NCBI GenBank assembly: GCA_013152275.1
Contig: JAADGS010000027.1
Location: forward strand, 178,336-198,335
Length of the DNA: 20,000 bases
Direction of reading: 5' to 3'
From: Actinomycetota bacterium
Lineage (GTDB): Bacteria > Actinomycetota > Acidimicrobiia > Spongiisociales > UBA4744
Shown: positions 6,163-20,000 of the stretch, piece by piece
Position numbering within the stretch: the first letter of the stretch is position 1
How the letters are laid out: every line of letters begins with the position of its first letter
The notes under the pieces: generated by a model
Seen by the model: the letters and a program-made list of their open reading frames with translations, nothing else
The model's database searches: none
What the model was told of the DNA's origin: nothing
Position numbers and translations under genes: made by a program

Positions 6163-6855
6163 ATGAGTGACGACCCGAATGTGACGCTGGTGACGTCAGG
6201 CGGACCGGTCGATCGGCTGGTGGGCGCCCCGGTCGTACTCGAGGCGCGCTCGGTGATGAAGAGCTATGTCAGGGGATGGCGGAGGAGGCCGCTCAGGGTC
6301 CTTCGGGGCGCCGATCTGGAACTCCATGCGGGAGAGATCGTGGGTCTCGTGGGAGAGAACGGCTCCGGCAAGTCCACCTTCATGAAGATTCTCGTAGGCG
6401 CGCTCGATCGTGATGGCGGTGAACTCGTCCGAACGGGAACCTTTGGGTACTGCCCGCAAGAGCCTGTCTTGTATGAGCGACTCACCTGTGACGAGCATTT
6501 CGAGTTGTTCGGACACGCCTACGATCTCGATCCCGGAGTCAGCGATCGAAATCGTGACGAGATCTACGAACGGTTCGGATTCGAAGCGTACCGGGACGTT
6601 CTCGTGGAGGAGTTGTCCGGTGGCACCCGCGCCAAGCTGAATCTCGGCGTCGCGCTCCTGGCGGATCCGCAGATACTGTTGCTTGACGAGCCCTATGCGG
6701 GGTTCGACTGGGATACGTACCTGCGTTTCTGGGAGTTGACGGCGGAGCGGCGTGATGCCGGCCGTTCCGTGCTCATTATCAGTCATTTCGTCGCCGACGA
6801 GGGGCGATTCGACCGTATCGTGGAGCTGCGGGACGGTCGTGCGGTCGAGCGATGA
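6163..6855 (+). CDS. ABC transporter ATP-binding protein (exporter type)
   Basis: Walker A GENGSGKST, Q-loop CPQ, signature LSGG, Walker B LLLDEP, ISH. Confidence 0.95.
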   Translation: MSDDPNVTLVTSGGPVDRLVGAPVVLEARSVMKSYVRGWRRRPLRVLRGADLELHAGEIVGLVGENGSGKSTFMKILVGALDRDGGELVRTGTFGYCPQEPVLYERLTCDEHFELFGHAYDLDPGVSDRNRDEIYERFGFEAYRDVLVEELSGGTRAKLNLGVALLADPQILLLDEPYAGFDWDTYLRFWELTAERRDAGRSVLIISHFVADEGRFDRIVELRDGRAVER

Positions 6856-8351
6856 AGGCGACACTGCTTACCCGCCGGTATCTGCTCGAGTATGCGCGCA
6901 GACCGTTGAATCTCGTCCTGCTGCTTCTTGTTCCTCTCGTGTTCGTCGTGCTGGTCTCGGGTGCGCTCGGCGATTTCGCCAAGGTGATTGGTGGGGTTGG
7001 CGATCCTGGCCTGTTGGCAGCTCCGAGTGCCGGATGGGCGGCCGGGTTCCTTGCCGGCGTCGCCGGTTTCTTTCATGTGCTCGGCTCTCGAAATGCCGAC
7101 CGGCGGCTGGCTTCGGCGGGGTTCGGTCCTCGCCGTATCGTGACCGCTCGTCTCATCTCTGGTGTGATTCTGGCGCTCCTGGCTGCCGCATCGGCGCTCG
7201 TGGCGCTAGCGGCGCGTACCGGTCTGGCGGATCCGGTGCGAGCGATCGCGGGTTCGGTCATGTTCGCCGTCATCTACCTTGCCATCGGTGTGGCGGTCGG
7301 CTCGGTGATTCGCAACGAGGTCAACGGGTCGTTGGTCGTGATCTTCGTTTGGATGCTCGACGTGTTCCTCGGTCCGGCCATGGCCGGCGGCGACGTGTGG
7401 GTCACCCGTCTGTTCCCCACGCATTTCGTGACGTTGCTCATGCTCGACGCCCCATCCGGGCATGCGGGGTCGATCGGCGATGTGGGCTGGGCGTTGCTGT
7501 GGACTGTCGGCGCTCTGTTGCTGGCGGCCGTGTTGCTTGCATCCGCGACGAAGACACATCCTTTACACTGGTACCGTGGCGCACGTTGGGCGTCGGTCCG
7601 TCGGGCCTGGGAGGGTCTGCGCTACGGGATGCGCGAGTACCGACGCAACATCGCCATGTGGGTGCTGCTGGCGGTGCTGCCGGTCTTCTTCATCTCTCTC
7701 AGTTTCGTCATCACTCCCGATCAGCCTGCTCCTGTGGAGTTGTCCGAGGGAGGCGTGACCACGGCCCGGTTGATCTCCATGACGGACCTCCACGGCGCGA
7801 TCATGGTCCCGATCACCATCGCATTCTTGGCAGGGTTGGCCGGGCTGTTCGTGATACAGGCGTCTTCGGAGGCTGATCGCCGGCTGGTGATCGCCGGGTT
7901 CCGAACCCGCGAGATCTTGGTGGCGCGGCTCGGAGTCATCGGTCTCGCCGGTCTGATCGCGACCGGGGTGTCCCTGGCGATCACGGCGATCGACTTCACA
8001 CCAGGCTCCTGGATGGGGTTTACCGTCGGTAACGTGCTGGTAGCGGTGACGTACGGGCTGGTGGGGGTGTTGATCGGTTCACTGTTTGGGCGACTTGGAG
8101 GTCTCTATCTGATGTTCCTCCTGCCCTTCATCGATGTTGGCCTCGCACAGAACGTCATGTTCTCCGCCGTTCCTCCTGCCTGGGGTGCGTTCCTGCCGGC
8201 ACGGGGCGCGATGCGCGTGCTCGTCAACGCGGCATTTACGCCGAGCTTCGACCAGATCGGCAATCTGCTGCTCGCTCTCGGCTGGGTGGTAGCCCTCGGA
8301 TTGGTGGCTGCCCTGGTGTTGCGCCGCACGGCCGGGGTCCAGAGCACCTGA
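6852..8351 (+). CDS. ABC-2-type permease with two fused, duplicated membrane domains
   Basis: ATGA overlap with the ATPase; hydrophobic; internal repeat LAGVAGFFHVLGSRNADRRLASAGF / LAGLAGLFVIQASSEADRRLVIAGF. Confidence 0.88.
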   Translation: MKATLLTRRYLLEYARRPLNLVLLLLVPLVFVVLVSGALGDFAKVIGGVGDPGLLAAPSAGWAAGFLAGVAGFFHVLGSRNADRRLASAGFGPRRIVTARLISGVILALLAAASALVALAARTGLADPVRAIAGSVMFAVIYLAIGVAVGSVIRNEVNGSLVVIFVWMLDVFLGPAMAGGDVWVTRLFPTHFVTLLMLDAPSGHAGSIGDVGWALLWTVGALLLAAVLLASATKTHPLHWYRGARWASVRRAWEGLRYGMREYRRNIAMWVLLAVLPVFFISLSFVITPDQPAPVELSEGGVTTARLISMTDLHGAIMVPITIAFLAGLAGLFVIQASSEADRRLVIAGFRTREILVARLGVIGLAGLIATGVSLAITAIDFTPGSWMGFTVGNVLVAVTYGLVGVLIGSLFGRLGGLYLMFLLPFIDVGLAQNVMFSAVPPAWGAFLPARGAMRVLVNAAFTPSFDQIGNLLLALGWVVALGLVAALVLRRTAGVQST

Positions 8352-9584: not shown

Positions 9585-10052
9585 TTACTTCCCGTGGGAG
9601 TGAGGGGTCGGCCGCTTGTGGACATGCCGGGCGGCCGCAGCACCTCTGACCGACTCGTGATGAATGATGGTCTGACAGCGATTGGGGTCGGTGCAGGTCG
9701 ACGGATCGAGGCTACGAGCCTGCTCCGCCAGAATGGCGAGTTGTCGTCGGGTCTTCTTCAAGGCTTTGATGTGCGCATCCAGGTCGTGCATGTGGCGCTC
9801 GAGCAGTTCGAGCACGTGGTGACAGGTCGTTTCACCTCTGTCACGAAGATCGAGAATCGAAGCGATCTCCGTGAGCGTCAGGCCGGTGGCCTGGGCATCC
9901 TTGATGAACAACAGTCGGTCGACGGAGCCTGTGTCGTACATACGGTATCCGTTGGGAGCCCGGTGAGGAGCCGGCAGGAGACCTATGTCTTCGTAGTACC
10001 GAACTGCCTTGGTCGAGACTCCGGCATGCCGGGCGAGTTCTCCGATGGTCAT
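9585..10052 (-). CDS. Heavy-metal-responsive MerR-family transcriptional regulator (CadR/ZntR/CueR-like)
   Basis: MTIGELARHAGVSTKAVRYYEDIGLL..P.R..NGYR.Y HTH; Cys in TCHHV and CTDPNRC; His-rich C-terminal tail. Confidence 0.95.
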   Translation of the reverse strand: MTIGELARHAGVSTKAVRYYEDIGLLPAPHRAPNGYRMYDTGSVDRLLFIKDAQATGLTLTEIASILDLRDRGETTCHHVLELLERHMHDLDAHIKALKKTRRQLAILAEQARSLDPSTCTDPNRCQTIIHHESVRGAAAARHVHKRPTPHSHGK

Positions 10053-10058
10053 GGCACC

Positions 10059-10092
10059 ATCATATCGTCGTGACCCTCCAGTGGGATGGAAG
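10059..10092 (-). promoter_or_regulatory. Probable leaderless promoter of the MerR-family gene with an autoregulatory operator
   Basis: TATGAT -10 lies 6 nt before the ATG with no RBS; operator-like ACCCTCCAGTGGGATGGAAG at about 10073-10092. Confidence 0.55.
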
Positions 10093-10128
10093 AAGCGGTT
10101 TGGGGTGGCCGAATTGGCCGGCGTCTTC

Positions 10129-10160
10129 TTGACATTCTAGTTGACTGGAAGGTGTACGTT
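10129..10160 (+). promoter_or_regulatory. MerR-type promoter divergent from the MerR-family gene
   Basis: TTGACA-TTCTAGTTGACTGGAAGGTG(20 bp)-TACGTT. Confidence 0.85.
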
Positions 10161-10189
10161 GGCGGAAGCAACAGGAAGGAGGTGAAGGG

Positions 10190-10252
10190 ATGAAGCGCTT
10201 CATCGTTCCACGCATCGCTCACTGTTCAGACGGCTGTACCGCCGGATCCTGA
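10190..10252 (+). CDS. 20-aa His/Cys peptide MKRFIVPRIAHCSDGCTAGS, putative metal-binding microprotein
   Basis: Near-perfect SD AAGGAGGTGA upstream; first ORF after the MerR-type promoter; followed by a strong hairpin. Confidence 0.6.
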   Translation: MKRFIVPRIAHCSDGCTAGS

Positions 10253-10271
10253 GCAGGATGTGAAACTGCTT

Positions 10272-10306
10272 GGCGTGGTCGGGGTCCTGCGAATCCCGAC
10301 CACGCC
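10272..10306 (+). terminator. Hairpin after the micropeptide ORF
   Basis: GGCGTGGTCGGG-N11-CCCGACCACGCC, perfect 12-bp stem. Confidence 0.6.
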
Positions 10307-10415
10307 GCCACCGAATCATCTCCTTGCACATGGGGCAGCTTGGCTGGATCTCGTCGGAGTGGCCGCCCTCGAAACCGGCCGGGCAGAGTAGGCCGGGAGA
10401 GCCTCGCGAGGTACG

Positions 10416-10430
10416 CTACGCAACGTAGTA
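10416..10430. promoter_or_regulatory. Putative BlaI/CopY-family operator
   Basis: Palindrome CTACG-CAA-CGTAG(TA) upstream of the blaI-like gene, resembling TAC...GTA operators of this family. Confidence 0.45.
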
Positions 10431-10510
10431 GTGCAGTGTCGAAGGTCCGGCCTCCTCGGGTTCTCGCGGGAGACCGGATGCATATCGGCGAAAAGGGAAG
10501 GAATGGCGGC

Positions 10511-10864
10511 ATGGCCAGAGAACCCATTCTCGAGAATGCCGTGATGCTGATGCTTTGGCGGGAGGAAGGTCCTCTGACGCCGCGTCAAGTGAAGGCTCGG
10601 CTCGATGAGACCCATCCGGTGGCATACACGACGGCGATGACTGTTCTGATGCGACTGTGGAAGAAGGGCCTTCTGCGGCGCTATCGCGTGGGTCGAGCGT
10701 ACGCGTACGCGCCGACCGTGGGACAGGCCCAGCATGCGGCTCAGCGTATGGAAGGGATCCTCAGAGGAGTGAACGAACGGGCGGTCGCGTTGGGCCGGTT
10801 CGTGGAGCAGCTTTCGGCGTCGGACCGGGAGGAGCTGATGCGGATCCTGAGCGCCGATGAGTGA
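10511..10864 (+). CDS. BlaI/MecI/CopY family transcriptional repressor
   Basis: LENAVMLMLW..GPLTPRQV...VAYTTAMTVLMRLWKKGLLRR..VGRAYAY.P winged HTH; start could be 10478. Confidence 0.92.
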   Translation: MAREPILENAVMLMLWREEGPLTPRQVKARLDETHPVAYTTAMTVLMRLWKKGLLRRYRVGRAYAYAPTVGQAQHAAQRMEGILRGVNERAVALGRFVEQLSASDREELMRILSADE

Positions 10865-11792
10865 GATCCTGTTGGTCGCTTCCCTCGTGCTGCTCGGCAC
10901 ACCGTTTCTGCTGAGCCGTTTCGGGCATCGTATCGCCGCAGCCGAGCGCACACGGCTGATGGCCGTATCGCTCGCCGGTGGACTGGTGTTCCTCGAGCTC
11001 GATCTCGTGTTGACGGCCTTGCCGACCGTCCTGCGCTCATTTCGCCTGACAGGTCTCGCCTCTGCGTGTGAACGACTTGTCGGACACGTGTTGGGTGGGG
11101 GGCCGATTGTGGGATGGGTCGTGTTCGCCATGGCTCTGCTCCTGCCGGTATCGGCAATCGTGACGAGCCTGAGATGTCGAACGCGGTATCGTCGTCTGCG
11201 TGCCGATCCGTGGGTCGGGACACATCGGCCATATGGCGAGCATGAGCTGGTCGTGCTGCCTTCGGCGGAGATGGTCGCGATCAGTGTTCCCGGCCGGCCC
11301 GGGCAGGTGATTCTCTCGGAAGGTCTGCTCGATACTCTGGCACCGGCAGAGCTGGATGCGGTGCTGCGGCACGAGGGGGCACACCTCGATCTTCGACACT
11401 CGAGGTATCTTCTGCTCGCCGCCGTCGTGCAGTGCGCCGTGGGATGGCTTCCGACGGTCCGGGGGAGCGTGGGCAGCCTCAGGCTGTCGGTGGAGGAGTG
11501 GGCCGATGCGGTCGCAGTTCGAGATCTGGGCACCAGCAGACCCGTCGCAGATGCTTTGCGCTCGTTGGTCTTTGCCTCGCTCTTTCCACACGCGGCTTCG
11601 TTCTCTGCCGCCGAGACGATTGGTGAACGTCTCGAGGCCCTCGAGCACGGTGAGCCTCGGAAGGCCCCCCTGGCTCGCCTGGCCGCCTATTCGCTGATAG
11701 CGCTGCTGTGGCTGGGGGCAGGCGGATCCGTAGCGACATGGTTGACACATGCCCGTGGATTGGTCGGCATGACGCCGTACTGTCCTCTTTGA
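10857..11792 (+). CDS. M56/M48 (BlaR1-like) membrane zinc metallopeptidase
   Basis: TM segments, ILSEGLL..L...ELDAVLRHEGAH (HExxH), EEWAD; coupled to the BlaI-like gene. Confidence 0.9.
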   Translation: MSEILLVASLVLLGTPFLLSRFGHRIAAAERTRLMAVSLAGGLVFLELDLVLTALPTVLRSFRLTGLASACERLVGHVLGGGPIVGWVVFAMALLLPVSAIVTSLRCRTRYRRLRADPWVGTHRPYGEHELVVLPSAEMVAISVPGRPGQVILSEGLLDTLAPAELDAVLRHEGAHLDLRHSRYLLLAAVVQCAVGWLPTVRGSVGSLRLSVEEWADAVAVRDLGTSRPVADALRSLVFASLFPHAASFSAAETIGERLEALEHGEPRKAPLARLAAYSLIALLWLGAGGSVATWLTHARGLVGMTPYCPL

Positions 11793-11879
11793 GGTTCGGT
11801 GCCGCAGCGGCCAGACGCATCCGCGAGGAGACCGGAAGCCGGACCGTGTTGACGCAACCGACCCGTGGACGGCAAGCCG

Positions 11880-12420
11880 ATTCGCCAAACGTCGATGACG
11901 ACTCGACTAGAGCCGAAGCTGCCGGTTTCGGGTTGGGCCGGCACGCTCCCGGCGGTGGCTGTCTTCGCCGGCCTTCGAATCGACGACCCGGCCCGTCTGG
12001 AGGGGGTGTCGGTGTGGATGAGAAACGCTTCCTCAACGCCCCGTCTACCTATTGCACAACGTCTACGACCCAGATCGTCGACCTGGTGGATCGTCACCGC
12101 CTGTTGGATGTGATCGAAGGCCGTTCCCGTGACGCACTGGACGCCGGGCTCACCGGACGGGGAGACTGCCAGTGTGGTCGTGTCCGCATCGCCACTTTGG
12201 ACCCGGCAGCCGGATACCGCAAAACCTGGTCGATTGCCTCGGCGTCGCCACCCTGATCGTGGATCGTTTCCATGCGATATGCCACTCGAATCGGGCGGGC
12301 GACGAGGTGTGTCATCGAGTCCGGTCACCAAACCTTGGGACATCGGGGTCGCAAGACCGACCCGGCGTATCGGTCGTGACGGGTCCTATCGAACGGAAAG
12401 ATAACGACTCACCGGAGGCC
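11880..12420 (+). pseudogene. ISL3-family transposase remnant (frameshifted, truncated)
   Basis: Motifs spread over several frames: VGVDE, TQIVDL...LLDVIEGRS, LDPAAGY, IVDRFH, LGHRGRKTDP; boundaries approximate. Confidence 0.8.
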
Positions 12421-12746
12421 ATTTCGGACAGATGCGCTCGTCATCCACCGCCAAAGATCCTGACGGCGAGGGTGTTGCCGCTCGGGACGGTCGAACTCGA
12501 AGCGGGTGTCCGCGATGCCGGTCCTCTCCCGGCGGGTCGGTGCTCGGCGGTGGCGATCGAGGACAGAGGCTGCCTGAGCTCATTACTGGGGGCACCGGGG
12601 AGAGGTGACGTCACCGTTCCGCCTGGGATTGGTGTTGCCGCAGGGTGCCGTGTCGCTGCGGTTGGTTCGAACAAACCAGTCGGTGTGGGCGCGGAGCGGT
12701 TCAATCTGCTGATAGTGTTGTTAGTTCCGCTAGCCCACGGGTGGTC

Positions 12747-14696
12747 GTGAGGGTTCGTGTTGCGCTGGTGTTGAGTCTGCTGGTGGCGGTGCAGCTGCTG
12801 CCGGTACCGGGAGGGGCTGCCGTTGAGAGCCCGGTTGTGTCGCGGGTTGGTGGTCGTGTCGATGGTGGTGGGGTTGTTGGTGTGTCGGCCGTGTCGATGC
12901 CCGGCGATCTTCCGGTCGAGGTTCAGGGTGATGCCGGTTCGGCTCCTGTGGATGCTTTCCGACCGAATCCTGAAAGCTTGAAGCCTGGCTGGCGGACCGG
13001 GGTGTTCGAGATTGCTGTCCCTGATGGTGGCGGCGAGGTGCGCGTGTCGGGGTCGCCTGTGCGTCTTGTGGCTCCGGCGGGGTTGGTCCCGAGCGGGTCT
13101 ACGGCTCGTGTCGAGGTCTTTGATCGTGGTGCGGTCGGGAGTGTTTCACCTTTCGGGGCTGCAGTCTCGGTGGGGTTTCGCGACGCTGCGACGCAGTTGT
13201 CGCCGACTGGGCGTTCGGGGTCCTACGGGTGGGCGATCTCGAATCTGGCCTACGGGTGGGAATCGGCCGAGCCGGTACCGGTCATCGCTGGGGCATCCTA
13301 TGAGGTTGGCGGATGGGTGCGTGGCGAGATCGACGCGGCCGAGTCGTTCGGGGCGTGGATCGTTCGTGCGTCGTTCCTCGATGCTGGCGGTGAAGTGACC
13401 GGCCACGTCGATGTGGCCAGAGGCGACCCGGGATCGTTGAGCGACCGGTGGGAACGGGTTGGCGACCAGGTCACAATCCCTGATGGTGTCGTGTCGGTAC
13501 GGGTCGAGTTGTTCAACTACCTCAACGGCGGGTGGGTCGCGTTCGATGACACGACCGTATCGGCGGTCTCGGACGCGTCGGTGTCGACCACCTACGGTTT
13601 CGGTTCCGGTGCGGTGGCCGTCGGTGTCGATGCAGATGTCTCCTACACGTTCGGGGATCATCTCGGGTCGGTGGTAGCCGCGTATCGTCGGTCGGATGGG
13701 CGAGTGTCGCGACGTTTCTTCCTCCCCTACGGGCAGGTCCGTGCGTCCGATACGATGCCGACCGACCGTAGCTTCACCGGTCAACACGCCGACGCTACCG
13801 GCCTGTTGTACCTGCATGCCCGCTACCTGGACCCGACGATCGGCCGGTTCATCCAGCCAGACGTCCTGATCCCGGACGTAGCCGCCCCCCAATCGTTGAA
13901 CCGTTACAGCTACGTACTCGACGACCCGATCAACCACACCGACCCGACCGGACGTCAGGGGTGGCCTGTGGGCGAGCGCGACCCGCAGATCGAGACTCGG
14001 GACTGTAGAGGGTCGGGGGGTTGCGGGTTGCTGGTGGTTGGTGTCCACGGCGGGTTCGGATGGGCCCGGGTGGCGTATATTGGTGCGCTTCGCCGTACCG
14101 CTGTGTCACGGGTAGCCGCCGCCGCCGGGGTGATGGTTGCCGGTGCGGTTGCTGTTGAGGTGGCTCCTGCGTTGGCTGCGCTCGTACCGGACGCGGCCGG
14201 GGCCGTCTCGGCTGCGGTCGATAACGCCCTGATCCGCATCCTTGCGAGGAGCACTGTCGCAACGGCGCAGGCCACAGGCTGGATACGACACCTCCTCGGA
14301 GCCGACACCACCACAATCGAAGAACAAACCCTCGCCACAAACACAGCAGACGACCTGCTGGCCTTGCCCGGCAGACAGGTGGATGCTACTTGGGGTGTGA
14401 ACACGTATCGGCATGGCGGCACGATGACGACGATCGAGCACATCAACTATCGGCATGCCTGGGACACCGGGTTTTCGAATGTGAGCCGTTTCGCCGAAGG
14501 GACTAGCGCTCGCCAGATTCAGGGTCTTGTCGACGACGCGCTGAAGTACGGCACGGTGAGTGGGAATGGGACCAGCGTCCTGTGGGACGCTGGTCGGGCA
14601 CTGGGGGTCGATGCTGCAGGCAACACCGCTACCGGTGTGCAGGTCTACATCCGAGACGGGATCATTCAGACTGCCTTTCCTGTGGGTGTGCCGTAA
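12747..14696 (+). CDS. Short Rhs-repeat-associated-core polymorphic toxin with signal peptide, CBM-like domain and EndoU-like C-terminal toxin
   Basis: Hydrophobic N-terminus (RVRVALVLSLLVAVQLL); DHLGS, PYG, FTGQ..D.TGL.YL.ARYLDPTIGRFIQPD, LNRYSYV.DDPINHTDPTG; tip with EHINYRH..SRF...IQTAFP; start uncertain (12741 or 12747). Confidence 0.88.
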   Translation: MRVRVALVLSLLVAVQLLPVPGGAAVESPVVSRVGGRVDGGGVVGVSAVSMPGDLPVEVQGDAGSAPVDAFRPNPESLKPGWRTGVFEIAVPDGGGEVRVSGSPVRLVAPAGLVPSGSTARVEVFDRGAVGSVSPFGAAVSVGFRDAATQLSPTGRSGSYGWAISNLAYGWESAEPVPVIAGASYEVGGWVRGEIDAAESFGAWIVRASFLDAGGEVTGHVDVARGDPGSLSDRWERVGDQVTIPDGVVSVRVELFNYLNGGWVAFDDTTVSAVSDASVSTTYGFGSGAVAVGVDADVSYTFGDHLGSVVAAYRRSDGRVSRRFFLPYGQVRASDTMPTDRSFTGQHADATGLLYLHARYLDPTIGRFIQPDVLIPDVAAPQSLNRYSYVLDDPINHTDPTGRQGWPVGERDPQIETRDCRGSGGCGLLVVGVHGGFGWARVAYIGALRRTAVSRVAAAAGVMVAGAVAVEVAPALAALVPDAAGAVSAAVDNALIRILARSTVATAQATGWIRHLLGADTTTIEEQTLATNTADDLLALPGRQVDATWGVNTYRHGGTMTTIEHINYRHAWDTGFSNVSRFAEGTSARQIQGLVDDALKYGTVSGNGTSVLWDAGRALGVDAAGNTATGVQVYIRDGIIQTAFPVGVP

Positions 14697-14929
14697 TGGG
14701 TGTCTGTCTGCTGGATCGGTTCTTCGACGAGGAGTGCACGTCATATGTGCGTGATCTGCTGCTGGAAGCAATGGGCCGTAGCTCCGGGACTGAGTACTTC
14801 ACCTTCAATGTGTTCAACGTCCTGATAGATGCTGACCGCGGCGTTGTCACCGTTGAGGACGAATTGGATCCGGCGGCGTCCTGCACTACCTCGCGTGGAT
14901 CCTTCGTGTCGCGTTTGCAGGCGGTCTGA
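14696..14929 (+). CDS. Putative immunity protein 1 (77 aa)
   Basis: TAATG overlap with the toxin stop; small and acidic: MGVCLLDRFFDEEC...FTFNVFNVLID...VEDELD. Confidence 0.75.
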   Translation: MGVCLLDRFFDEECTSYVRDLLLEAMGRSSGTEYFTFNVFNVLIDADRGVVTVEDELDPAASCTTSRGSFVSRLQAV

Positions 14930-14933
14930 GGAC

Positions 14934-15536
14934 ATGCATCGGTACGCCGGTGGAGGTTCGGTCCGGCTGCCTGAGTATGCAGGTCTCTTCCGAGTCCTGG
15001 CTATCTTCGTGTTCATTGCCATCTGGCTTGGCGCTCCTGTTCCGAGTTCCGCTGCTGGACGGGCCACCGATGTTTCGCCGGCGCCCACCTGTGCCTACGA
15101 CGACTGGGCGCCAACTTCCGCACCTACGACGAATGGCGTCGCCAGCCTCGCGGATCAAGTCGTTCGCGGCCCCAGCGAGGTCCAGGGACACCTCTACGAC
15201 GTCTCTGCTAACTCCGTTGCCACAAACGCGCTACTCACACCAGGCCGACTTGCGGATGATGTCGCGGAGGCTGTTGGGGGAGTTGCCAAGCCCGCAACGA
15301 GCGGCACCGGCCAGGTGATCACGATCCCTCAAGGGAACCGCCAGATTGTCATCCGCATCATGGAGGAGGGTGGCGGAAGAACGAACTACTACCGAGTCAG
15401 TGTTGCAGGCAAGGAGGCCCTAACCGTCATGGGCGAGGCTTCGGTGGACAGGGCTCTGACGCACATACCGATCGGTGAGAGCTCTCTCGACGACATTCTT
15501 CGGCTCGTCAACCAACTTGCCGGTGGTGGCGGATGA
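14934..15536 (+). CDS. Cassette toxin 2: signal-like segment + YD/ATN module + putative RNase tip (THIP motif, Ntox30-like)
   Basis: FRVLAIFVFIAIWLGAPVPSSAAG; GHLYD..ATN; tip VIRIM...YYRVS...THIP; start uncertain. Confidence 0.7.
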   Translation: MHRYAGGGSVRLPEYAGLFRVLAIFVFIAIWLGAPVPSSAAGRATDVSPAPTCAYDDWAPTSAPTTNGVASLADQVVRGPSEVQGHLYDVSANSVATNALLTPGRLADDVAEAVGGVAKPATSGTGQVITIPQGNRQIVIRIMEEGGGRTNYYRVSVAGKEALTVMGEASVDRALTHIPIGESSLDDILRLVNQLAGGGG

Positions 15537-15862
15537 CTGTGCTCAACCGGATCTGGGGAGGCCGCCTGACACAGCTACGCGTCGATGCTGCCGTTCACAG
15601 GGTGCGCCTGGTCATATCCACGGTCACTGGCGCTGTGGAGGACGTCTGCGAGATCGTCTGTTCCGAAGTCCGCGAGATGCGCCTGTTCGATGAGAGCATG
15701 TCGGTGTGGGATTATGTTGAGATCACGGCTGCCTCAGCTAGGCCAATGCCCGATGGCTCCATGGTGCTGGAGTTGACGATGTGGACTGAGGAGGCTGGGC
15801 TGATGATCCGATGCGGCGAGATCACAGTTGACGGGGAGGCACTGTCATTCAACGGCTGCTGA
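15533..15862 (+). CDS. Putative immunity protein 2 (109 aa)
   Basis: ATGA overlap with toxin 2; small, acidic, beta-rich pattern. Confidence 0.72.
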   Translation: MTVLNRIWGGRLTQLRVDAAVHRVRLVISTVTGAVEDVCEIVCSEVREMRLFDESMSVWDYVEITAASARPMPDGSMVLELTMWTEEAGLMIRCGEITVDGEALSFNGC

Positions 15863-15873
15863 CATGGCTCAGA

Positions 15874-16410
15874 GTGTTCTTGTTAGGCGTGGTCGCCGCA
15901 GGCATCCTCCTTTTCGACCCGTGGGCTACGGCTGCCGGCGCGAACCCGATCGTCTCTCAGTCACCGGCTCTGGATGCGTGTGGTTACGATGCCCTCACAC
16001 GTTGTGATGCATCTACGACGGTTTCAACGGCTGACCTTGCGGTTCAGCCTGCCACCTCACCCTCCGGTGAGGTGGGATACGTGTACGACTCTCCCCGTTT
16101 CTCCCATGCCACAAACGGGGCAGAGATCCCTGAGGTCATCTACCGAGGAGGAGGTAGGAGCCCCTCGAATCTGACGTTGCGTGAGGGCGAGGAGGCACTG
16201 TCATTCCGGAGCTCGTTGTCAAACCCCTACCCGTCTGGCCGGCAGCCGGTGTTCCGGCCGGGACGCGAGTACATCGGGATCGATACCTCTGGGCTTCCTC
16301 CGGGATCGGTTGTTGTGGACAACGTCCCGCAGGGGCATGTCTCAGTGTTCGTGGATGATGTCGACCTTCTTCGGTCGCTGATCGTTGAGAAGGGTCGGTT
16401 CCCGAAGTGA
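15874..16410 (+). CDS. Cassette toxin 3: signal-like segment + YD/ATN module + ADP-ribosyltransferase-like tip
   Basis: Hydrophobic N-terminus ending ATAAGA; GYVYD..ATN; tip IYRGG..SPSNLT.R...LSF...GHVS, resembling the R-S ART fold; start uncertain. Confidence 0.68.
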   Translation: MFLLGVVAAGILLFDPWATAAGANPIVSQSPALDACGYDALTRCDASTTVSTADLAVQPATSPSGEVGYVYDSPRFSHATNGAEIPEVIYRGGGRSPSNLTLREGEEALSFRSSLSNPYPSGRQPVFRPGREYIGIDTSGLPPGSVVVDNVPQGHVSVFVDDVDLLRSLIVEKGRFPK

Positions 16411-16859
16411 GCGATTCGTCAGACAGTGTTGTCGAGGCAATCCGATGTCTTGTCCGGGTCGCAGAGATCTTCGGCGACTTGGCCTCGTGGCTTCGACAGA
16501 TCGAGGGAGCGACTCGAGTGATGCAGCCGTGTTCCATGACCACGCTTAGGCGACGCGAAGACGAAGTGATCGAGTATGGCATCGGCGACGGGGTCGGGAT
16601 CGACTGGTACGCTGATGTGGAGTTTACCAATGGCAGAGCGCTGAGCTTCGGCCTGGAGCTGAGCTGGGACGGGGGCGAATGGCGGGTGGTGCCCGGGATC
16701 CGGATCACCCATCGAGCGGGCCAAGATGATCTGTTCGACCTTGCCGATCGCTACGCGGTTGACGATGTTGACATGTGCAACTCACTCCTGGGAGCTGCTC
16801 GCGAACTAGCCAGCTTGCGGGATGAAGCGTTGGAGTTGTTCCGGTCATGGTCCGGGTGA
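16407..16859 (+). CDS. Putative immunity protein 3 (150 aa)
   Basis: GTGA overlap with toxin 3; acidic. Confidence 0.72.
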   Translation: MSDSSDSVVEAIRCLVRVAEIFGDLASWLRQIEGATRVMQPCSMTTLRRREDEVIEYGIGDGVGIDWYADVEFTNGRALSFGLELSWDGGEWRVVPGIRITHRAGQDDLFDLADRYAVDDVDMCNSLLGAARELASLRDEALELFRSWSG

Positions 16860-17458
16860 TCCCCTCCCGGGCCTTTGCACACTCTGCCGGGCTCGTCGTT
16901 ATGGCTGCTGCGGTGCTGGGGCTCACGGCCCTTTCCGGATCGGCCTCCGCTGAGGCGCGGCTGGACGTTTGGACGGTTACTCATACGCACGACGACACAG
17001 CGACTGCACCTATGGCTATGACGACTCGCGGCGTCGACGTTGCAGAGCGGCCAGTTCCGTCCTCCTCAGGCGGTCTCGGATTCACCTACGACCCTTCCGG
17101 CCATTCCGATGCCACAAACACAGCAGGGGTGGTTGATGATGCGGCCAATGCTGCGCAAGGTGCTCGGCTGCGAGAGCACTTGAGGCTGTTGGAGCAGTAC
17201 GGTGCGGGTGGGGTACGCGAGTTGGCCGATGGCCGTATCCGCTACTACAGCGAGGTGACGATAGCATCGAAGCCAGGCGAGATGGCTGGTGCGCGTCTGG
17301 TACGGGAGTGGAATCCTGCGACCGGCAACTACCGAACGTGGTACGAGACGCTTGACCACGCCGGCCAGATACGCCAAGTCCATCCATATCAGCCGTACTC
17401 GTCGTACCACTACATGTTCATGTTCGATGAGTTCGGCAACTATGCGGGGCGCGGGTGA
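16847..17458 (+). CDS. Cassette toxin 4: signal-like segment + HD/YD/ATN module + unassigned (possibly nuclease) tip
   Basis: VVMAAAVLGLTALSGSASA; GFTYD..ATN; tip GRIRYY...GEMAG.R.VREWNP.TG..RTWYET.DH.G.IRQV.P; start 16847 or 16856. Confidence 0.72.
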   Translation: MVRVIPSRAFAHSAGLVVMAAAVLGLTALSGSASAEARLDVWTVTHTHDDTATAPMAMTTRGVDVAERPVPSSSGGLGFTYDPSGHSDATNTAGVVDDAANAAQGARLREHLRLLEQYGAGGVRELADGRIRYYSEVTIASKPGEMAGARLVREWNPATGNYRTWYETLDHAGQIRQVHPYQPYSSYHYMFMFDEFGNYAGRG

Positions 17459-17736
17459 TGCGCAACTTGGTACCGTCACCGCCGTCGCAGGCAGATATCC
17501 GGGACATGCTGCGGGGGCTCCTCGCTGGCAGTCTGTCGCGCGAGGAGGTTTCGAGATGGGCTCAGCGGTGGGTCGGGGCGGTAGATCCAGGGATCGACGA
17601 CCCTGTTGTGTGGCGTGCGCTGACACGGCTAGGCGGCGTCGACCTGCGCGCCAGCACTGACGAGTACCTGTACTACGACCCCGACTTTCACTCGTGGCTG
17701 GATGAGGTGGAGGATGCTATCGATCCTGGCGACTAG
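17455..17736 (+). CDS. Putative immunity protein 4 (93 aa)
   Basis: GTGA overlap with toxin 4; helical, acidic (SREEVSRWA...YLY...DF.SWL). Confidence 0.75.
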   Translation: MMRNLVPSPPSQADIRDMLRGLLAGSLSREEVSRWAQRWVGAVDPGIDDPVVWRALTRLGGVDLRASTDEYLYYDPDFHSWLDEVEDAIDPGD

Positions 17737-18331
17737 GAATCCGCGACCTGCAGGTGTTCTCAACCGCTTGATCGGGATCGCGCTTCTCGTCGTCCTTTTC
17801 TTGGTCGTAGCCCCACCTACGATGGCCGGACTCGACTACGACCTCACGGGTCCTGTTGATGGGACTGTGATGGTTTCGGCCACTGACCTGCCTGTTCAGT
17901 CGGTTCCCTTCCCGGGCAGTAATGCCGGACACGTCTACGACTCCCTCCACTATCGACATGCCACAAACGAGACAGCTGGCGTTGGGACAAGCATCGTCAA
18001 GTACGAACCGTATCCACCCGCCGCGACGAGTCCGGGAGGGTTCTGGGGAGCACCTGTTCGGAACAGGCTTCGCCCCGGAACGATCATTTCGCGCTACGGC
18101 GGGGAGGGCGGGACGTACGCCTCACCGGCGGGAACACCGTTCTCTGCCAGAGCGCTCCCGCCAGCGCAAGAAGCACTGGGTGAGAGCCTCTACACAGTCA
18201 CACAGCCGCTCGACGTCGATGCCGGCATCGCCGCCTGGTGGCAAGGAGGTGGCGGAGGGATCCAGTACAGACTTCCGGCCTCGGTGTCGGAACTCCTTGA
18301 GAGCGGATTCCTGAAGAGGCTGGATCTATGA
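17702..18331 (+). CDS. Cassette toxin 5: signal-like segment + YD/ATN module + TNT (tuberculosis necrotizing toxin-like NAD+ glycohydrolase) domain
   Basis: L.PGTIISRYGGEGGTYASPAGTPFSARALPP...Y.V..PL.V.AG..A.W..GGG.QY..P.SV.ELLE.GFL matches the TNT pattern; start uncertain (17702 or 17714). Confidence 0.88.
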   Translation: MRWRMLSILATRNPRPAGVLNRLIGIALLVVLFLVVAPPTMAGLDYDLTGPVDGTVMVSATDLPVQSVPFPGSNAGHVYDSLHYRHATNETAGVGTSIVKYEPYPPAATSPGGFWGAPVRNRLRPGTIISRYGGEGGTYASPAGTPFSARALPPAQEALGESLYTVTQPLDVDAGIAAWWQGGGGGIQYRLPASVSELLESGFLKRLDL

Positions 18332-18570
18332 ACCGCCGCGATCTTCGACGGTGCGCTGAGGCCGAGGGTATTCGAGAGACGGCCTACAGTCTTGAGGGAG
18401 GACTGCCACCCGAGACGTACGTGCTTGCGCTCGAGGAGGGCGGATGGTCCGTCTACTACTCCGAACGCGGCTCACGCGTTGATGAGCGCCACTTCGATAC
18501 AGAGGACGAGGCATGTTCGGACCTGCTGCTTCGACTCGTGGAGGACCCAACCACGCGTGAGCGGCGATGA
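18328..18570 (+). CDS. Putative TNT immunity protein (Imm59-like, 80 aa)
   Basis: ATGA overlap; WSVYYSERG....F.TEDEAC pattern of small proteins found next to TNT toxins. Confidence 0.8.
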   Translation: MNRRDLRRCAEAEGIRETAYSLEGGLPPETYVLALEEGGWSVYYSERGSRVDERHFDTEDEACSDLLLRLVEDPTTRERR

Positions 18571-18706
18571 CGTTCTCTGGTGCCGACAGCGAGCGCATGG
18601 CCACGCTCCGGTGGGTCGGAGCCGTGCCTGCTCCGATCTTCGTGATGAAGGATGACCCTACGCCCTTCTTTGGCCGTACCGATACCTCGGTCGAGGACCA
18701 GACCCC

Positions 18707-19324
18707 ATGATGGCGGCCGTGCGGTCGGGTCGGTCGAGGTGGCAGTCGTGGCCGCTGTTCGTGGCTGTTCTCGTGTTCTCTGTACTGGCTGGGCCGGTGG
18801 CGAATCCTCAGTGGGCGTACGGCTACGACGGGCCTTCCTCGATCTACGACGGCCTGGGCACCGTCGCGTCAGTCGATGGACCCATCGGCGGTAGCCCCGT
18901 GCTTTCGGCGACCGTGGACGCCGATCGGTACTCCGGGTTCATCCACGACTCCTCCGGCTACGCATCTGCCACAAACGGCGCAAGAGGTGTTCGTGGACTG
19001 TCTGGTGCTGGCGACGAATTGGCTCAGGGTGGCGTCTACGCGCTACGTGATCCCGTCACGGGGCAGGTCGTGCGAACGGGACGAACGAGCGATCTGATTC
19101 GGCGTGCAGGTGAGCACCTACGTGATCCGGCGCTGGCCGACTACGAGTTCGAGATCATTGCTCGAACTGACATCTATGCACAGCAGCGAGGGCTTGAACA
19201 GCTCATCCACGAGGCGTACTCGCCTCCTCTGAATCTGATCCGGCCAATCAACCCGACGAATCCGAGTGTGACTACCTACTTGGACGCGGCGGCTGAGTTC
19301 TTGTCGACATACGGAGGCGGCTAG
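18707..19324 (+). CDS. Cassette toxin 6: signal-like segment + YD/HD/ATN module + GIY-YIG (Tox-URI-like) nuclease tip
   Basis: WPLFVAVLVFSVLAG; GFIHD..ATN; tip GGVYALRD...VVRTGRT.DL.RR..EH...RGLEQ...LN.I.PI. Confidence 0.8.
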   Translation: MMAAVRSGRSRWQSWPLFVAVLVFSVLAGPVANPQWAYGYDGPSSIYDGLGTVASVDGPIGGSPVLSATVDADRYSGFIHDSSGYASATNGARGVRGLSGAGDELAQGGVYALRDPVTGQVVRTGRTSDLIRRAGEHLRDPALADYEFEIIARTDIYAQQRGLEQLIHEAYSPPLNLIRPINPTNPSVTTYLDAAAEFLSTYGGG

Positions 19325-19798
19325 ATGACGAAGAAGCTGCCCTATACCAATGGTGATCTTGTTGCCGTGCCGCTCCGCGAGGGGCTTGGATATGCAGTCG
19401 GTCTCATCGTGGCTCATGACGGTCTGGGTGGGGTGATCGGCTACTTCTTCAATCTGCGGTTTGATGCGATTCCGACCGTTGACGCGGCAGGGGCTTGGGG
19501 GCGCTCTGATGTACTGAGGGTGATGCGTTTCGGCGATCTGGGGTTGATCCGGGGCGATTGGGTGGTTCTCGGCGAGCATCCTGAGTGGCGACCTTGTGAT
19601 TGGCCGATTCCTGCCTTTGGGAGACGCGAGCCTACGGGTAGGGCATTCAGGGTCACTTACTCGGCCGAGGATCTTCGCGGGCCAGCCCGCGAGGAACTGA
19701 TCGACGACGATGAGTGCGACCGTCTGCCTCGAGACGCCCTCAGCGGCTCGGGTGCTGTCGAGCGAGTTCTGACCCATCTGCTATCCGTGGACACCTAG
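19325..19798 (+). CDS. Immunity protein, Imm26-like (157 aa)
   Basis: Abuts the toxin 6 stop; Y..GDLVAVPL..G.GYAVGLI, FGDLGLI.G.W.VLG. Confidence 0.8.
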   Translation: MTKKLPYTNGDLVAVPLREGLGYAVGLIVAHDGLGGVIGYFFNLRFDAIPTVDAAGAWGRSDVLRVMRFGDLGLIRGDWVVLGEHPEWRPCDWPIPAFGRREPTGRAFRVTYSAEDLRGPAREELIDDDECDRLPRDALSGSGAVERVLTHLLSVDT

Positions 19799-19800
19799 CC

Positions 19801-20000
19801 ATGACCCCGATTGTCGGAGCTGTCTCTCCAGTGCCACGTCGAGGTCAGAGCTGCGCGGCTTGGTGGACGGTGACGGTGATGCTGCTGAGTTTCGTTTCCC
19901 TGCTCGCAGTTTCTCCCGCGGCCCACGGGTCCAACCAGGCTGCACTTGGGTACTACTACAACGGCTCGATTCCAGACGCTGCGCCTACGACAGTTCCTGC
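19801..20000 (+). CDS. Cassette toxin 7, N-terminal part (runs off the window)
   Basis: Manual translation MTPIVG...WWTVTVMLLSFVSLLAVSPAAHGSNQAALGYYYNGSIPDAAPTTVP: signal-like segment, then YN-x8-TTV in register with cassettes 2 and 3. Confidence 0.72.
   Translation, partial: MTPIVGAVSPVPRRGQSCAAWWTVTVMLLSFVSLLAVSPAAHGSNQAALGYYYNGSIPDAAPTTVP

Follow-up and report, generated by a model that had tools for sequence, protein, structure and literature searches.

Organization of the toxin array

The window, the whole 20,000-nt stretch of DNA analyzed here, contains an array of toxin genes that starts with a short Rhs-core carrier and continues, in one orientation, with units ~0.85 to 1.2 kb long. 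The features are the following:

11708..12256, +, remnant of an ISL3-family transposase preceding the short Rhs gene (PF01610 DDE_Tnp_ISL3, E = 1.4e-5)
12645..14696, +, short Rhs-core carrier, 683 amino acids (TIGR03696 Rhs_assc_core at amino acids 360 to 436, E = 1e-19)
14333..14348, +, junction box 1 (C GCCACAAAC ACAGCA), where the Rhs linker meets the toxin tip
14696..14929, +, candidate immunity gene of the Rhs tip, 77 amino acids, by position only
14934..15536, +, cassette 1: signal peptide, YD pre-toxin domain, box (15219 to 15227), toxin
15533..15862, +, candidate immunity gene 1, 109 amino acids, by position; start and toxin stop overlap
15874..16410, +, cassette 2: signal peptide, YD pre-toxin domain, box (16108 to 16116), toxin
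16407..16859, +, candidate immunity gene 2, 150 amino acids, by position
16847..17458, +, cassette 3: signal peptide, YD pre-toxin domain, box (17111 to 17119), toxin
17455..17736, +, candidate immunity gene 3, 93 amino acids, by position
17702..18331, +, cassette 4: signal peptide, YD pre-toxin domain, box (17960 to 17968), TNT-family toxin domain
18328..18570, +, candidate immunity gene 4, 80 amino acids; similar ORFs lie beside toxins in G043 and L115
18707..19324, +, cassette 5: signal peptide, YD pre-toxin domain, box (18968 to 18976), toxin
19325..19798, +, immunity gene 5, Imm26 family (PF15428, E = 1.8e-6, 28.6 bits against a cut-off of 23.3)
19801..20000, +, beginning of cassette 6, with signal peptide and first YD-like motif, truncated where the contig ends

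In the Rhs carrier, a signal-peptide-like N terminus is followed by a further domain, the core (nt 13722 to 13952), a linker of ~130 amino acids, the box, and a tip of 117 amino acids after Ala-Thr-Asn (ATN). An Rhs-associated core, which ends in the DPxG motif, is the mark of a polymorphic-toxin carrier, and the TIGR03696 match assigns this protein to that class. Pfam RHS_repeat (PF05593) has no match in this carrier; the YD-repeat shell, which it does not have, is found in two other genomes, G033 (2180 amino acids) and G043. The start codon of the candidate immunity gene of the Rhs tip overlaps the Rhs stop codon (TAATG), and cassette 1 has a further open ATG upstream, at 14829. Since the contig stops at window base 20000, the array is cut there. 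The match to the ISL3 remnant spans only profile positions 1 to 69 of 240; this remnant is context and lies outside the mechanism considered below.

An immunity gene or a candidate for one lies directly downstream of each toxin; Imm26 in the window and SUFU (PF05076) in G033 are recognized by family, the others by position only. Candidate immunity gene 4 is 46% identical over 48 amino acids to the G043 ORF and 32% over 85 amino acids to the L115 ORF (BLASTP), while candidate immunity gene 1 has no Pfam family match. Known toxin families at the tips are TNT (PF14021) in L115 and in cassette 4 (E = 1.9e-24, amino acids 123 to 206) and colicin E5 (PF12106) in G043; in G033, an HNH toxin lies behind PT-TG and PT-HINT. 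Most tips match no family. The cassette 1 toxin has neither a Pfam nor an NCBIfam family, and the cassette 5 toxin shows a sub-threshold T5orf172 match (PF10544, 19 bits against a cut-off of 20). The six toxin parts in the window (100 to 123 amino acids) show no mutual BLASTP similarity below E = 0.3 and are unrelated, as the original prediction had it.

That prediction also held that one 9-mer marks the start of all six toxins. Indeed, GCCACAAAC occurs at 14334, 15219, 16108, 17111, 17960, and 18968, always on the + strand and always read in frame as A-T-N between carrier and toxin. The expected number of copies in the window is 0.10, and six were reached in 0 of 200 shuffles. The claim that shared sequence ends at the word is correct for cassettes 1 to 5, where the YD pre-toxin domain precedes it, but not for the Rhs gene, which has only the box in common with them. 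The copies at 14334 (Rhs) and 17111 are common over 16 nt, as had been noted; the latter is, however, the fourth copy and belongs to the third cassette, not to "cassette 4."

The box is the sole repeat family of the array, no other repeats being found there. In extended form, it reads Y-GCCACAAAC-R-S-N-N-Y-A (~15 to 16 nt), and its commonest form, GCCACAAACACAGCA, present at 6 of the 22 sites described below, gives 15 to 16 nt of identity. A count over the whole genome, which had been suggested, gave 22 copies of GCCACAAAC compared to ~21.6 expected from composition. Since the 16 copies beyond the array are scattered, mostly out of frame, and without exception lack the full extended motif (0/16), the enrichment is local to the array. 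No dyad symmetry, nearby inverted copy, or excess hairpin was detected at 20 sites, which sets the box apart from most core sites of recombinases, and an Rfam scan of the window returned no matches.

Constraint on the box at the DNA level

The word GCCACAAAC is present at 22 of 22 readable carrier-toxin junctions from eight sources: six Acidimicrobiia genomes of four families (f1, f2, f4, and f9), one further MAG contig, and one metagenome contig (G000, 6 junctions; G033, G343, and G380, 3 each; G043, L111, and L115, 2 each; G162, 1). Four of these junctions were found by protein profile alone and two by the Rhs-core family plus an in-frame ATN alone. When 401 genomes of the order were searched with the pre-toxin protein profile, four credible matches were obtained outside G000, and the word is present in all four (P ~1e-6 under codon usage). 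Three weaker profile places (G043:C1:713546 and two in G007) were read and proved to be no family members and to have no ATN. Among 76 newly parsed Rhs tails of the order, three have an in-frame ATN, written as GCCACAAAC in two and as GCTACCAAC in one, and 73 lack ATN altogether; within 158,820 nt of retrieved sequence, GCCACAAAC is confined to the two Rhs-tail ATN places. The box system is therefore rare in the order.

Three unrelated carriers precede the box: Rhs linkers, which do not align with each other; the signal-peptide YD pre-toxin domain, whose members share 20 to 35% identity with the sequence that heads alignments A3 and A4; and the PT-HINT domain, a self-cleaving domain directly followed by the box in G033. 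Modules of different genomes show no DNA homology to each other.

The spelling of A-T-N does not vary synonymously at any of the 22 junctions, a comparison that the original prediction had proposed as a check. Across 990 long ORFs of the genome, 8.9% of Thr residues are encoded by ACA, said there to be disfavored; for the array genes, the figure is 14%. Given A-T-N, the probability of the codons GCC, ACA, and AAC is 0.032 when genome codon usage is applied and 0.026 when that of the array is applied. Likewise rare at the genome's 64% GC are the codon at +12 to +14, which ends in A, and the one at −1, which ends in T; GCC and AAC are common codons and are equally invariant in the box.

Neighboring residues had been described as poorly conserved. 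The neighboring bases, however, are not uniformly free: −1, +9, +13, and +14 are constrained as well. Position −1 is T at 14 of 20 sites compared to a 21% background, and +9 is R at 21 of 22. Position +14 is A at 21 of 22 sites, compared to a background of 10.5% A at third positions (P ~5e-20). The codons ending there are GCA, CTA, ACA, ATA, CCA, or GAA; since A is near-invariant across six encoded amino acids, the constraint acts on DNA or RNA, not on protein. Positions +11 and +12, located between the near-invariant +9 and +14, are variable. Among 35 family representatives drawn from 1.84 billion proteins, protein residue +4 is T, G, A, or E in 33/33 (all RNN codons), and residue +5 is A, L, I, P, V, or T in 32/32 (all NYN codons); read at the protein level, three of the 35 have ATK or AAN, and one is without the motif. 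Overall, these results show that the box is invariant at the DNA level.

Reassortment and population joints at the box

The toxin of the window Rhs tip is 87% identical to the P0023 toxin over 101 amino acids from residue 1 after ATN, and the P0023 carrier is of the signal-peptide YD type. Likewise, the G033 Rhs tip is 60% identical to P0022 over 48 amino acids, and P0027 is 82% identical to P0031 over 40 amino acids, both from residue 1. The carrier parts of these three toxin-matched pairs show no similarity. Conversely, in all 26 non-self pairs whose pre-toxin parts are at least 45% identical, the toxins are unrelated.

To population data we applied the breakpoint check that had been proposed, using Logan contigs from four hydrothermal-vent metagenome runs (X1 to X4, two studies), which are assembled contigs, not raw reads. 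When placed on the window, 51 of 58 contigs are at least 99% alike to it. Contigs break or rejoin at the word. Contig ends fall at 14342, 15219, 16108, 16116, 17969, and 18976, and loose ends into unlike sequence at 14348, 15219, 15228, 15234, 16116, 17103, 17969, and 18976, so that each of the six boxes has, at or within 8 nt, a loose end leading to sequence unlike the window. Box 1 has contig ends and joints at 14333/14342/14346/14348; the cassette 2 box has joints at 16108 and 16119 and loose ends at 16116 and 16124; the loose end of cassette 3 lies before 17103; and the boxes of cassettes 4 and 5 each have both a contig end and a loose end, at 17969 and 18976, respectively.

Two joints connect parts of the window. 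In the joint 14333→16108, the Rhs carrier is fused to the cassette 2 toxin; 1774 nt are skipped, nine letters are common, and the depth is 16 in X1 and 15.5 in X2. In the joint 16119→14346, seen in X3 and matched by loose ends at 16124 in X1 and X2, the cassette 2 pre-toxin part leads back 1774 nt to the Rhs-tip toxin, with five letters in common. These two joints, between box 1 and the cassette 2 box (box 3), are not exact reciprocals, one crossover lying in the 9-mer and the other in GCAGA (+12 to +16). Further contigs join Rhs-carrier or cassette 2 flanks to toxins that are not in the window. Since overlaps between consecutive contigs are ~30 nt, identities of 9 and 5 nt were taken as too short for a false assembly join.

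Thus, modules are reassorted on both sides of the box, and natural populations contain alternative joints there. Coming from assembled contigs, the joints fit ongoing recombination and standing strain differences alike, and the back-join of 1774 nt fits an excised circle, a tandem duplication, or a reordered array equally well. With neither free synonymous variation nor a lack of breakpoints found, the earlier reading of the word as a crossover site is supported.

Exchange mechanism and known systems

The original prediction saw no recombinase in the window, and we found none: the only such feature is the ISL3 remnant at 11708 to 12256. The recombinase it proposed to look for beside the array was also absent from the 20-kb loci of G043 and G033, where Pfam was run on the longer ORFs (17 and 6, respectively). 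PF00589 has no match on the contig of the window, nor any closer than 100 kb to the arrays of G033 and G043, and no serine recombinases were found in G033, G043, and G343. Four arrays have a transposase beside them, with three different families represented (IS3 in two cases, IS256 in one, and the ISL3 remnant). A phage-type tyrosine integrase beside the G380 array was considered and rejected, its best counterpart being 29% identical in G043 and 50% in the box-less G001. None of the candidates examined is a consistent partner of the box across genomes.

The GCCACAAAC box looks like a built-in splice point for toxin swapping. That exchange happens at the box is, in our view, highly probable; whether the box is the crossover point for in-frame exchange of toxin modules between carriers we judge to be evenly balanced, and the chances that a sequence-specific enzyme performs the exchange stand at about half. 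The carriers would be Rhs proteins, Sec-secreted YD pre-toxin proteins, and PT-HINT proteins, and a module would comprise a toxin domain with its immunity gene; within an array, it would also include the pre-toxin domain that follows. The copies of an array are repeated directly and in one reading frame, and recombination of any two would therefore delete or excise the interval and fuse the upstream carrier to the downstream toxin; insertion or exchange at one copy would install a new toxin-immunity pair with the frame intact. The box would then cause the exchange and not merely mark it, and A-T-N would simply be its coding content. Most likely, it would be recognized by a sequence-specific enzyme encoded elsewhere in the genome, and strand exchange may be staggered, from the 3′ end of the 9-mer to about +14; we infer both a dedicated enzyme and this cleavage geometry. 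A more far-reaching reading, which we consider somewhat doubtful, is a dedicated, integron-like, in-frame site-specific system, in which a distant enzyme would act by staggered exchange on an asymmetric 16-nt box. Any toxin-immunity module with a box could in this way be cut out, taken up, and attached in frame to any carrier with a box (Rhs, Sec-secreted, or HINT-processed), within as well as between Acidimicrobiia lineages.

It is also possible, though somewhat doubtful, that the box serves as a universal adaptor of short homology and has no enzyme of its own, exchange being carried out by general short-homology recombination (RecA-independent or break-induced) or by replication template switching. 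Its identity would be kept since only box-keeping cassettes stay exchangeable, or via homogenizing exchange. The different common stretches at which the joints of boxes 1 and 3 cross (the 9-mer and GCAGA) are what homology-guided exchange predicts, the commonest box form offers 15 to 16 nt of identity, no recombinase was found beside any array, and the box has no symmetry or hairpin. Homology alone, however, does not explain why +11 and +12 vary between the near-invariant +9 and +14, nor does it account for the exact same word in four bacterial families. Efficient bacterial homologous recombination needs lengths far above 9 to 16 nt, and this stretch is short for homology, yet the deletion joint has a depth of 16 beside contigs of 28.5 to 37.

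Two further explanations, both very improbable in our estimation, place the constraint outside DNA exchange. ATN could be a processing or linker motif, with the fixed rare codons (ACA, NNA, and NNT) causing a translational pause at the domain boundary, and the mosaics could reflect ordinary recombination elsewhere plus selection for intact domains. The rarity of these codons at 64% GC and the location of the motif at a domain boundary, directly after PT-HINT in G033, agree with a pause, but a pause explains neither the equal invariance of the common GCC and AAC nor a single exact word at 22/22 sites. Moreover, since the Rhs carrier and cassette 2 have only the box in common and are joined there, recombination elsewhere cannot yield this joint. 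Alternatively, a small RNA or RNase could read the 15 nt in every toxin mRNA and so co-regulate the arsenal. Constraint on nucleotides and not on protein, the location of all copies on the transcribed strand, and the weaker structure of the box region compared to array controls (mean MFE from −40 to +40 of −9.05 versus −11.58, sd 3.46) are consistent with such a target. An RNA target, however, need not lie exactly at the carrier-toxin junction behind three unrelated carriers and does not predict DNA joints at the box; the Rfam scan of the window was empty, and no complementary copy with <1 mismatch is present within 150 nt of any site.

Polymorphic toxin loci are a textbook case of modular protein evolution. 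Here, a DNA word of ~16 nt is the sole common element of unrelated carriers and toxins, is letter-exact across families, and is the point at which populations are mosaic. If an enzyme reads the box, it would represent a new in-frame route of domain shuffling and a ready-made natural "linker" for domain swaps; if no enzyme does, selection would be keeping micro-homology purely for evolvability, which would be striking.

In known polymorphic toxin loci, exchange is explained by ordinary homologous recombination, for which conserved carrier sequence provides the homology. As in Rhs, CdiA, and MafB loci, a constant carrier gene is followed here by toxin-immunity cassettes, exchange swaps the 3′ tip together with its immunity gene, and the Rhs core and the TNT, HNH, colicin-E5-like, Imm26, and SUFU families are all found. 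Displacement by orphan cassettes at such loci is treated in Zhang et al. 2012 (PMC3482391), Koskiniemi et al. 2014 (PMC3967940), and Poole et al. 2011 (PMC3150448), and the general description in Zhang et al. has orphan-type cassettes recombine through conserved carrier coding sequence. Homologous cassette exchange of this type does not fit the window, where the Rhs gene and the cassettes are common over the 9- to 16-nt box only; in addition, the cassettes here are complete genes with their own signal peptides, and the same box is found on unrelated carriers. The same order also has box-less arrays that keep the Rhs core on every copy, such as G125, with seven core ends in 15 kb.

Shufflons and in-frame tip switches (R64 Rci/sfx, Mycoplasma vsa/vpma, and hsdS inversion) have inverted sites, work by DNA inversion, and come with an adjoining recombinase gene. 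They resemble the box in that a short asymmetric site in a coding region joins a constant 5′ part to alternative 3′ parts. An invertible switch was rejected since the copies lie on one strand within each array (six of six on + in the window); the joints observed here, one skipping forward and one leading back, stay on the same strand, and no recombinase adjoins. A diversity-generating retroelement was also rejected: Pfam matches in the window and the G043 and G033 loci include no RT family, and the sole repeat of the array is the box.

Integrons combine attI and attC, which carry a 7-nt core site, with the IntI integrase. They have in common with the array units in a single orientation whose boundaries carry a short invariant word and whose remaining content is unrelated. 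In contrast to an integron, the array has no adjacent intI-type tyrosine recombinase, the G380 integrase being phage-type and without a consistent counterpart, and the 20 sites show no attC-like imperfect palindrome, inverted copy, or excess folding. Read by eye, GCCACAAAC does not fit the core GTTRRRY or RYYYAAC. Finally, integron sites separate promoterless genes, whereas the box is internal to reading frames and joins protein domains to each other.

The word and its array in the window

As the original prediction had stated, the window contains six copies of the nine-letter word GCCACAAAC, at 14334, 15219, 16108, 17111, 17960, and 18968, always on the plus strand (0.10 by chance; 0 of 200 shuffles reached six). 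All six copies are in frame and read Ala-Thr-Asn (ATN). The ACA codon is indeed disfavored, making up 8.9% of Thr codons in 990 long open reading frames (ORFs) and 14% within the array genes; from codon usage, the probability of a single ATN being written GCC ACA AAC is ~0.03. When the whole genome was counted, 22 copies were found compared to 21.6 predicted from composition, and the 16 copies outside the array are dispersed and mostly out of frame, with none matching the extended motif of ~16 nt around the word (the box). The signal is thus confined to the array. No repeats other than the box were found within the window. Since the window is the final 20 kb of a 198-kb contig (assembly of 3.07 Mb, 64% GC, 100 contigs), the array is cut at base 20000.

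The array starts with an Rhs gene that follows a transposase remnant:

11708-12256: ISL3 transposase remnant, directly upstream of the Rhs carrier
12645-14696: Rhs carrier, 683 amino acids, with a signal-peptide-like start, an Rhs-associated core, a ~130-aa linker, ATN, and a 117-aa tip

The Rhs-associated core (TIGR03696) occupies residues 360 to 436 of this carrier, which has no match to a YD-repeat shell or RHS repeat and may be a truncated or minimal form. Homologous carriers in two other Acidimicrobiia genomes are open frames of 2180 aa (G033) and ~3300 aa (G043). Behind the Rhs gene lie five complete cassettes and the beginning of a sixth. Each cassette has its own start codon, a Sec-type signal peptide, a ~60-aa pre-toxin domain, whose best-conserved segment is G-x-x-[YH]-D-x6-A-T-N, a 97- to 120-aa toxin, and a small gene overlapping or abutting the toxin. 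A TNT domain is present in cassette 4, Imm26 is the last small gene, and the six toxins are mutually unrelated. The array genes overlap or are almost contiguous, with no terminator-like site in between, so the array looks like a single operon of expressed toxins and not like silent orphans; a promoter and terminator scan returned nothing. Elsewhere in the window are NADH-dehydrogenase/Mrp-like genes (282-5269, minus strand) and an ABC-2 transporter pair (6163-8351) upstream of a BlaI-type repressor (PF03965), which is followed by an M48-peptidase BlaR-like gene (10340-11792).

The word in other genomes and the constraint on its nucleotides

Two codon-blind tests were applied to 401 genomes from the window's own order. 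In the first, a pre-toxin protein profile matched 30 genomes at E ≤ 0.01; besides the window's genome (G000), the only credible ones were G033, G043, G343, and G380, whose loci contain two or three coding-strand copies of the word each. The word is absent from 24 of the remaining 25 loci, and the other has one copy on the opposite strand. Three weaker places that were inspected (G043:C1:713546 and two in G007) turned out to be unrelated proteins without ATN. The second test used all Rhs-core matches in the order (TIGR03696; ~100 matches in 50 of 401 genomes, a tally that includes G249). With G249 and one match running off its contig left out, there were 75 regions; 61 of these loci yielded 76 distinct parsed core ends, and 14 were not parsed by the regular expression. 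An in-frame ATN was found in 3 of the 76 tails. Two are GCCACAAAC, in G162 and at G343:C120 (a second tip beside C121), the only occurrences of the word in 158,820 nt of Rhs-tail regions; the third is GCTACCAAC, located at residue 77 of a 250-aa tail. Across the tails, chance would give about three ATNs. The two G343 contigs (C120 and C121; loci L197 and L047) are both 3136 nt long and have in common only the first 169 nt, the end of the Rhs core (97% identity), followed by different linkers and tips with one box each; they represent either a pair of tips or alternative versions of a single Rhs gene.

No junction-like variants with one or two mismatches were found inside the arrays of G000, G033, G043, G343, and G380. 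A non-junction ATN within the G033 Rhs repeats is GCCACCAAC. G043 has a second Rhs tail that lacks the box; the sequence TCGACAAAC ("STN") there was considered as a decayed box and set aside as too weak. In G033, the word is located behind three carrier types: the linker of the 2180-aa Rhs protein, a YD pre-toxin domain, and a PT-HINT domain, where the junction reads …VHNTC-ATN- and continues into an HNH toxin and a SUFU immunity gene. At G033 locus L015 (reverse strand, 9668-11389), one in-frame stop, which may reflect a pseudogene or an error in sequencing, parts the toxin start of the YD cassette from a long ORF with PT-TG, PT-HINT, and HNH domains. A single product could therefore carry two boxes. 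At the G380 locus (L048/L100; box sites at reverse-strand 5204, 6310, and 7316), two of the three cassettes have decayed, as stop codons up- or downstream show, but have kept the word. The array is separated from an Rhs fragment by a phage-type integrase and an IS3 transposase.

A DNA-pattern scan of the 401 genomes with GCCACAAACRNNNYA (G608 included; ten re-read) revealed no arrays beyond those of G000, G033, and G043, the other matches being scattered singles at about the rate of a reversed-pattern control. The unpublished genomes G608 and G249 enter no claim other than this tally and that of the Rhs-core matches. Scans of two large collections added L111, a contig of an Ilumatobacteraceae metagenome-assembled genome, and L115, a metagenome contig. 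The genome-contig collection gave 65 loci compared to ~69 by chance, with arrays only at L069, L083, L100, and L111, and the metagenome collection gave seven loci, one of them an array (L115); the collection arrays are recorded under class Acidimicrobiia. Loci L060, L088, and L090 were rejected as penicillin-binding-protein "IYDRNG..LATN" motifs, in which the word is present through pattern selection. In unrelated phyla (L060, L088, L090, L117, and L118), this motif ("RG.IYDRNG..LATN") can happen to be encoded as TACGAC…GCCACAAAC, and it is a trap when pattern-searching with the word.

In total, the same nine letters, without synonymous variation, were found at 22 of 22 carrier-toxin junctions from eight sources, the genomes among them spanning four family codes. 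Flanking positions, counted from the word start as 0, are also restricted: 20 of 22 sites have T or C at −1 (T in 14 of 20 tabulated, compared to 21% T at third positions), 21 of 22 have A or G at +9, 14 of 20 have C at +10, 20 of 22 have C or T at +13, and 21 of 22 have A at +14. This last position holds the wobble base of a GCA, CTA, ACA, ATA, CCA, or GAA codon, that is, six amino acids with one third base; against a third-position A background of 10.5% in box genes, its conservation has P ~5e-20. The sole exception is the second site of L111, where the downstream sequence is no longer toxin-like. When 1.84 billion representative proteins were searched with a profile, 35 of the 36 matches were family members, with ATN in 31, ATK in 2, AAN in 1, and no motif in 1. 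The residue directly past the motif is T, G, A, or E in 33 of 33 (all RNN codons), and the second is A, L, I, P, V, or T in 32 of 32 (all NYN codons). The DNA motif is thus mirrored in the protein data, also for members seen as protein alone. Judged from these alignments, the constraint on the box acts on nucleotides.

Reassortment at the box and alternative joints in vent metagenomes

The toxin of the window's Rhs tip is 87% identical over 101 residues to that of P0023, a representative protein with a carrier of the signal-peptide YD type, and the similarity starts at the first residue past ATN. Two other pairs show the same ATN-start pattern: the G033 Rhs tip with P0022 (60% over 48 aa) and P0027 with P0031 (82% over 40 aa). 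The carriers in all three pairs gave no match. Among non-self pairs with pre-toxin identity of at least 45% (up to 86%), toxins are unrelated in 26 of 26, and the pre-toxin alignments stop 0 to 6 residues ahead of ATN. No DNA similarity in modules was found among the first five genomes compared. Carriers and toxins, as far as can be read from these comparisons, both reassort at the box.

The window was found in four hydrothermal-vent metagenome runs (X1 to X4) from two studies, at 0.95, 0.72, 0.40, and 0.08 of sampled words; X1 may be its source sample. These data are assembled contigs, whose successive pieces overlap by ~30 nt. They were compared with positions 12600-20000, excluding from evidence the parts of the window uncovered in X2 to X4, and 51 of 58 population contigs were at least 99% alike to the window. 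The X1 pieces (13208-14342, 14346-15202, 15219-16116, 16108-17969, and 17940-18976) end at box edges, and X2 pieces end at 14342, 16116, and 17969. Because a 9-nt identity is far below the ~30-nt contig overlaps, we take these ends to reflect differing sequence before or after the box among molecules.

Two alternative joints were detected. The first (14333→16108) passes over 1774 nt, has the 9-mer as its sole common sequence, and yields a fusion of the Rhs carrier with the cassette-2 toxin; its depth is 16 in X1 and 15.5 in X2, and that of the contigs beside it is 28.5 to 37. The second (16119→14346) goes back 1774 nt in X3; in X1 and X2 it shows up at 16124 as loose ends of 25 letters. It connects the cassette-2 pre-toxin to the Rhs-tip toxin, with the crossover in the common GCAGA at +12 to +16, and a circle, a duplication, or a reordered array could each give it. 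Further loose ends run into unlike sequence at 14348 (X4, from the other study), 15228, 15234, 16116, 17969, and 18976, and just before 15219 and 17103. The one at 15234 continues as …RYGPTNPGPL, by eye the toxin type behind the G033 YD cassette. The breakpoints at the word that the original prediction had called for are thus found in metagenome contigs, which speak to presence and not to frequency or timing. Since the Rhs linker and the cassette-2 pre-toxin have only the box in common, the joints do not come from conserved-upstream recombination, and by this comparison the crossover must lie within the 9 to 17 common letters. Summed contig depth in X1, a poor measure, drops beyond cassette 4 (18034-20000), from ~35 first to 16.6 and later to 13.4, and the distal cassettes may be carried by only part of the population.

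Proposed mechanism of exchange and comparison with known systems

The initial observation holds and extends to further genomes, and its interpretation as a crossover site for toxin-immunity exchange is supported by the DNA-level box, the two-sided reassortment, and the natural joints. A box is present at every carrier-toxin junction of the family that was read. Exchange very probably takes place at the box, and we infer that the box is the exchange site and is kept for that reason. Because the copies are direct and in phase, recombination between two of them would delete the interval and put the downstream toxin on the upstream carrier, while capture of a foreign box-bounded unit would install a toxin along with its immunity gene. 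The invariant 9-mer, the variable four- to five-letter run, the Y-A, and the two crossover positions 9 to 12 nt apart could be read, as a reading and not a result, as staggered strand exchange across a short overlap, with a trace left after replication.

That a sequence-specific enzyme performs the exchange has about even chances. No recombinase gene was found adjoining any array, the array-adjacent transposases belong to three unrelated families, and the only flank genes common to arrays are Rhs parts, toxins, immunity genes, and IS3 transposases. Searches with PF00589 and PF00239 in five box genomes, and with the G380 integrase in five box genomes and five controls, revealed no consistent recombinase partner: serine recombinases were not found in three of these five box genomes, and the array-side integrase of G380 was rejected, as G043 lacks a close counterpart and a box-free relative has one. 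The box itself has no dyad symmetry, hairpin, or inverted copies, and an Rfam search returned nothing. These points against a dedicated enzyme therefore make general short-homology recombination at a conserved adaptor the main rival. Translation-based or RNA-based roles of the box would account for the nucleotide constraint but leave the joints unaccounted for.

A tyrosine integrase family of G000 (MKGYVARKGDRWYAVIYEGLDPVTGKERR…) has whole and broken copies on contigs C21 (1-2812 and 8952-9302), where they sit among unrelated genes, and C3 (83959-84777). It is 68 to 70% identical to the G380 array-side integrase and 87% to one in G343, and looks like a horizontally shared integrative element.

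By its content (Rhs core, PT-TG, PT-HINT, TNT, HNH, colicin E5, Imm26, and SUFU), this is a polymorphic toxin system. A literature search that left most subscription journals outside found no description of a conserved DNA word at toxin junctions and nothing linking Acidimicrobiia with a polymorphic toxin. Besides the Mycoplasma comparison, the known systems are integrons, with an adjacent integrase and the attC fold, and shufflons, with inverted sites. Like both, the box system works through a short word. It is a member of neither: the arrays lack an adjacent integrase, the box lacks an attC fold and inverted sites, and the word lies inside reading frames.

In classical orphan-cassette exchange, as outlined in PMC3482391, the defining feature is homology through conserved carrier sequence, which the box arrays do not have. 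Arrays of another type were observed in the same order, with Rhs-core sequence on every copy and no box: one (G125:C1:616600-631526; L161) has seven core ends within 15 kb, with short ORFs and differing tails, and the same type, with four short ORFs, is found in G108:C50 (L147) and G050:C59 (L174 and L175). Their short ORFs keep the core end YAWANP..WDP[DN]G and contain neither ATN nor the 9-mer. These Rhs-core arrays provide a natural contrast to the box arrays.
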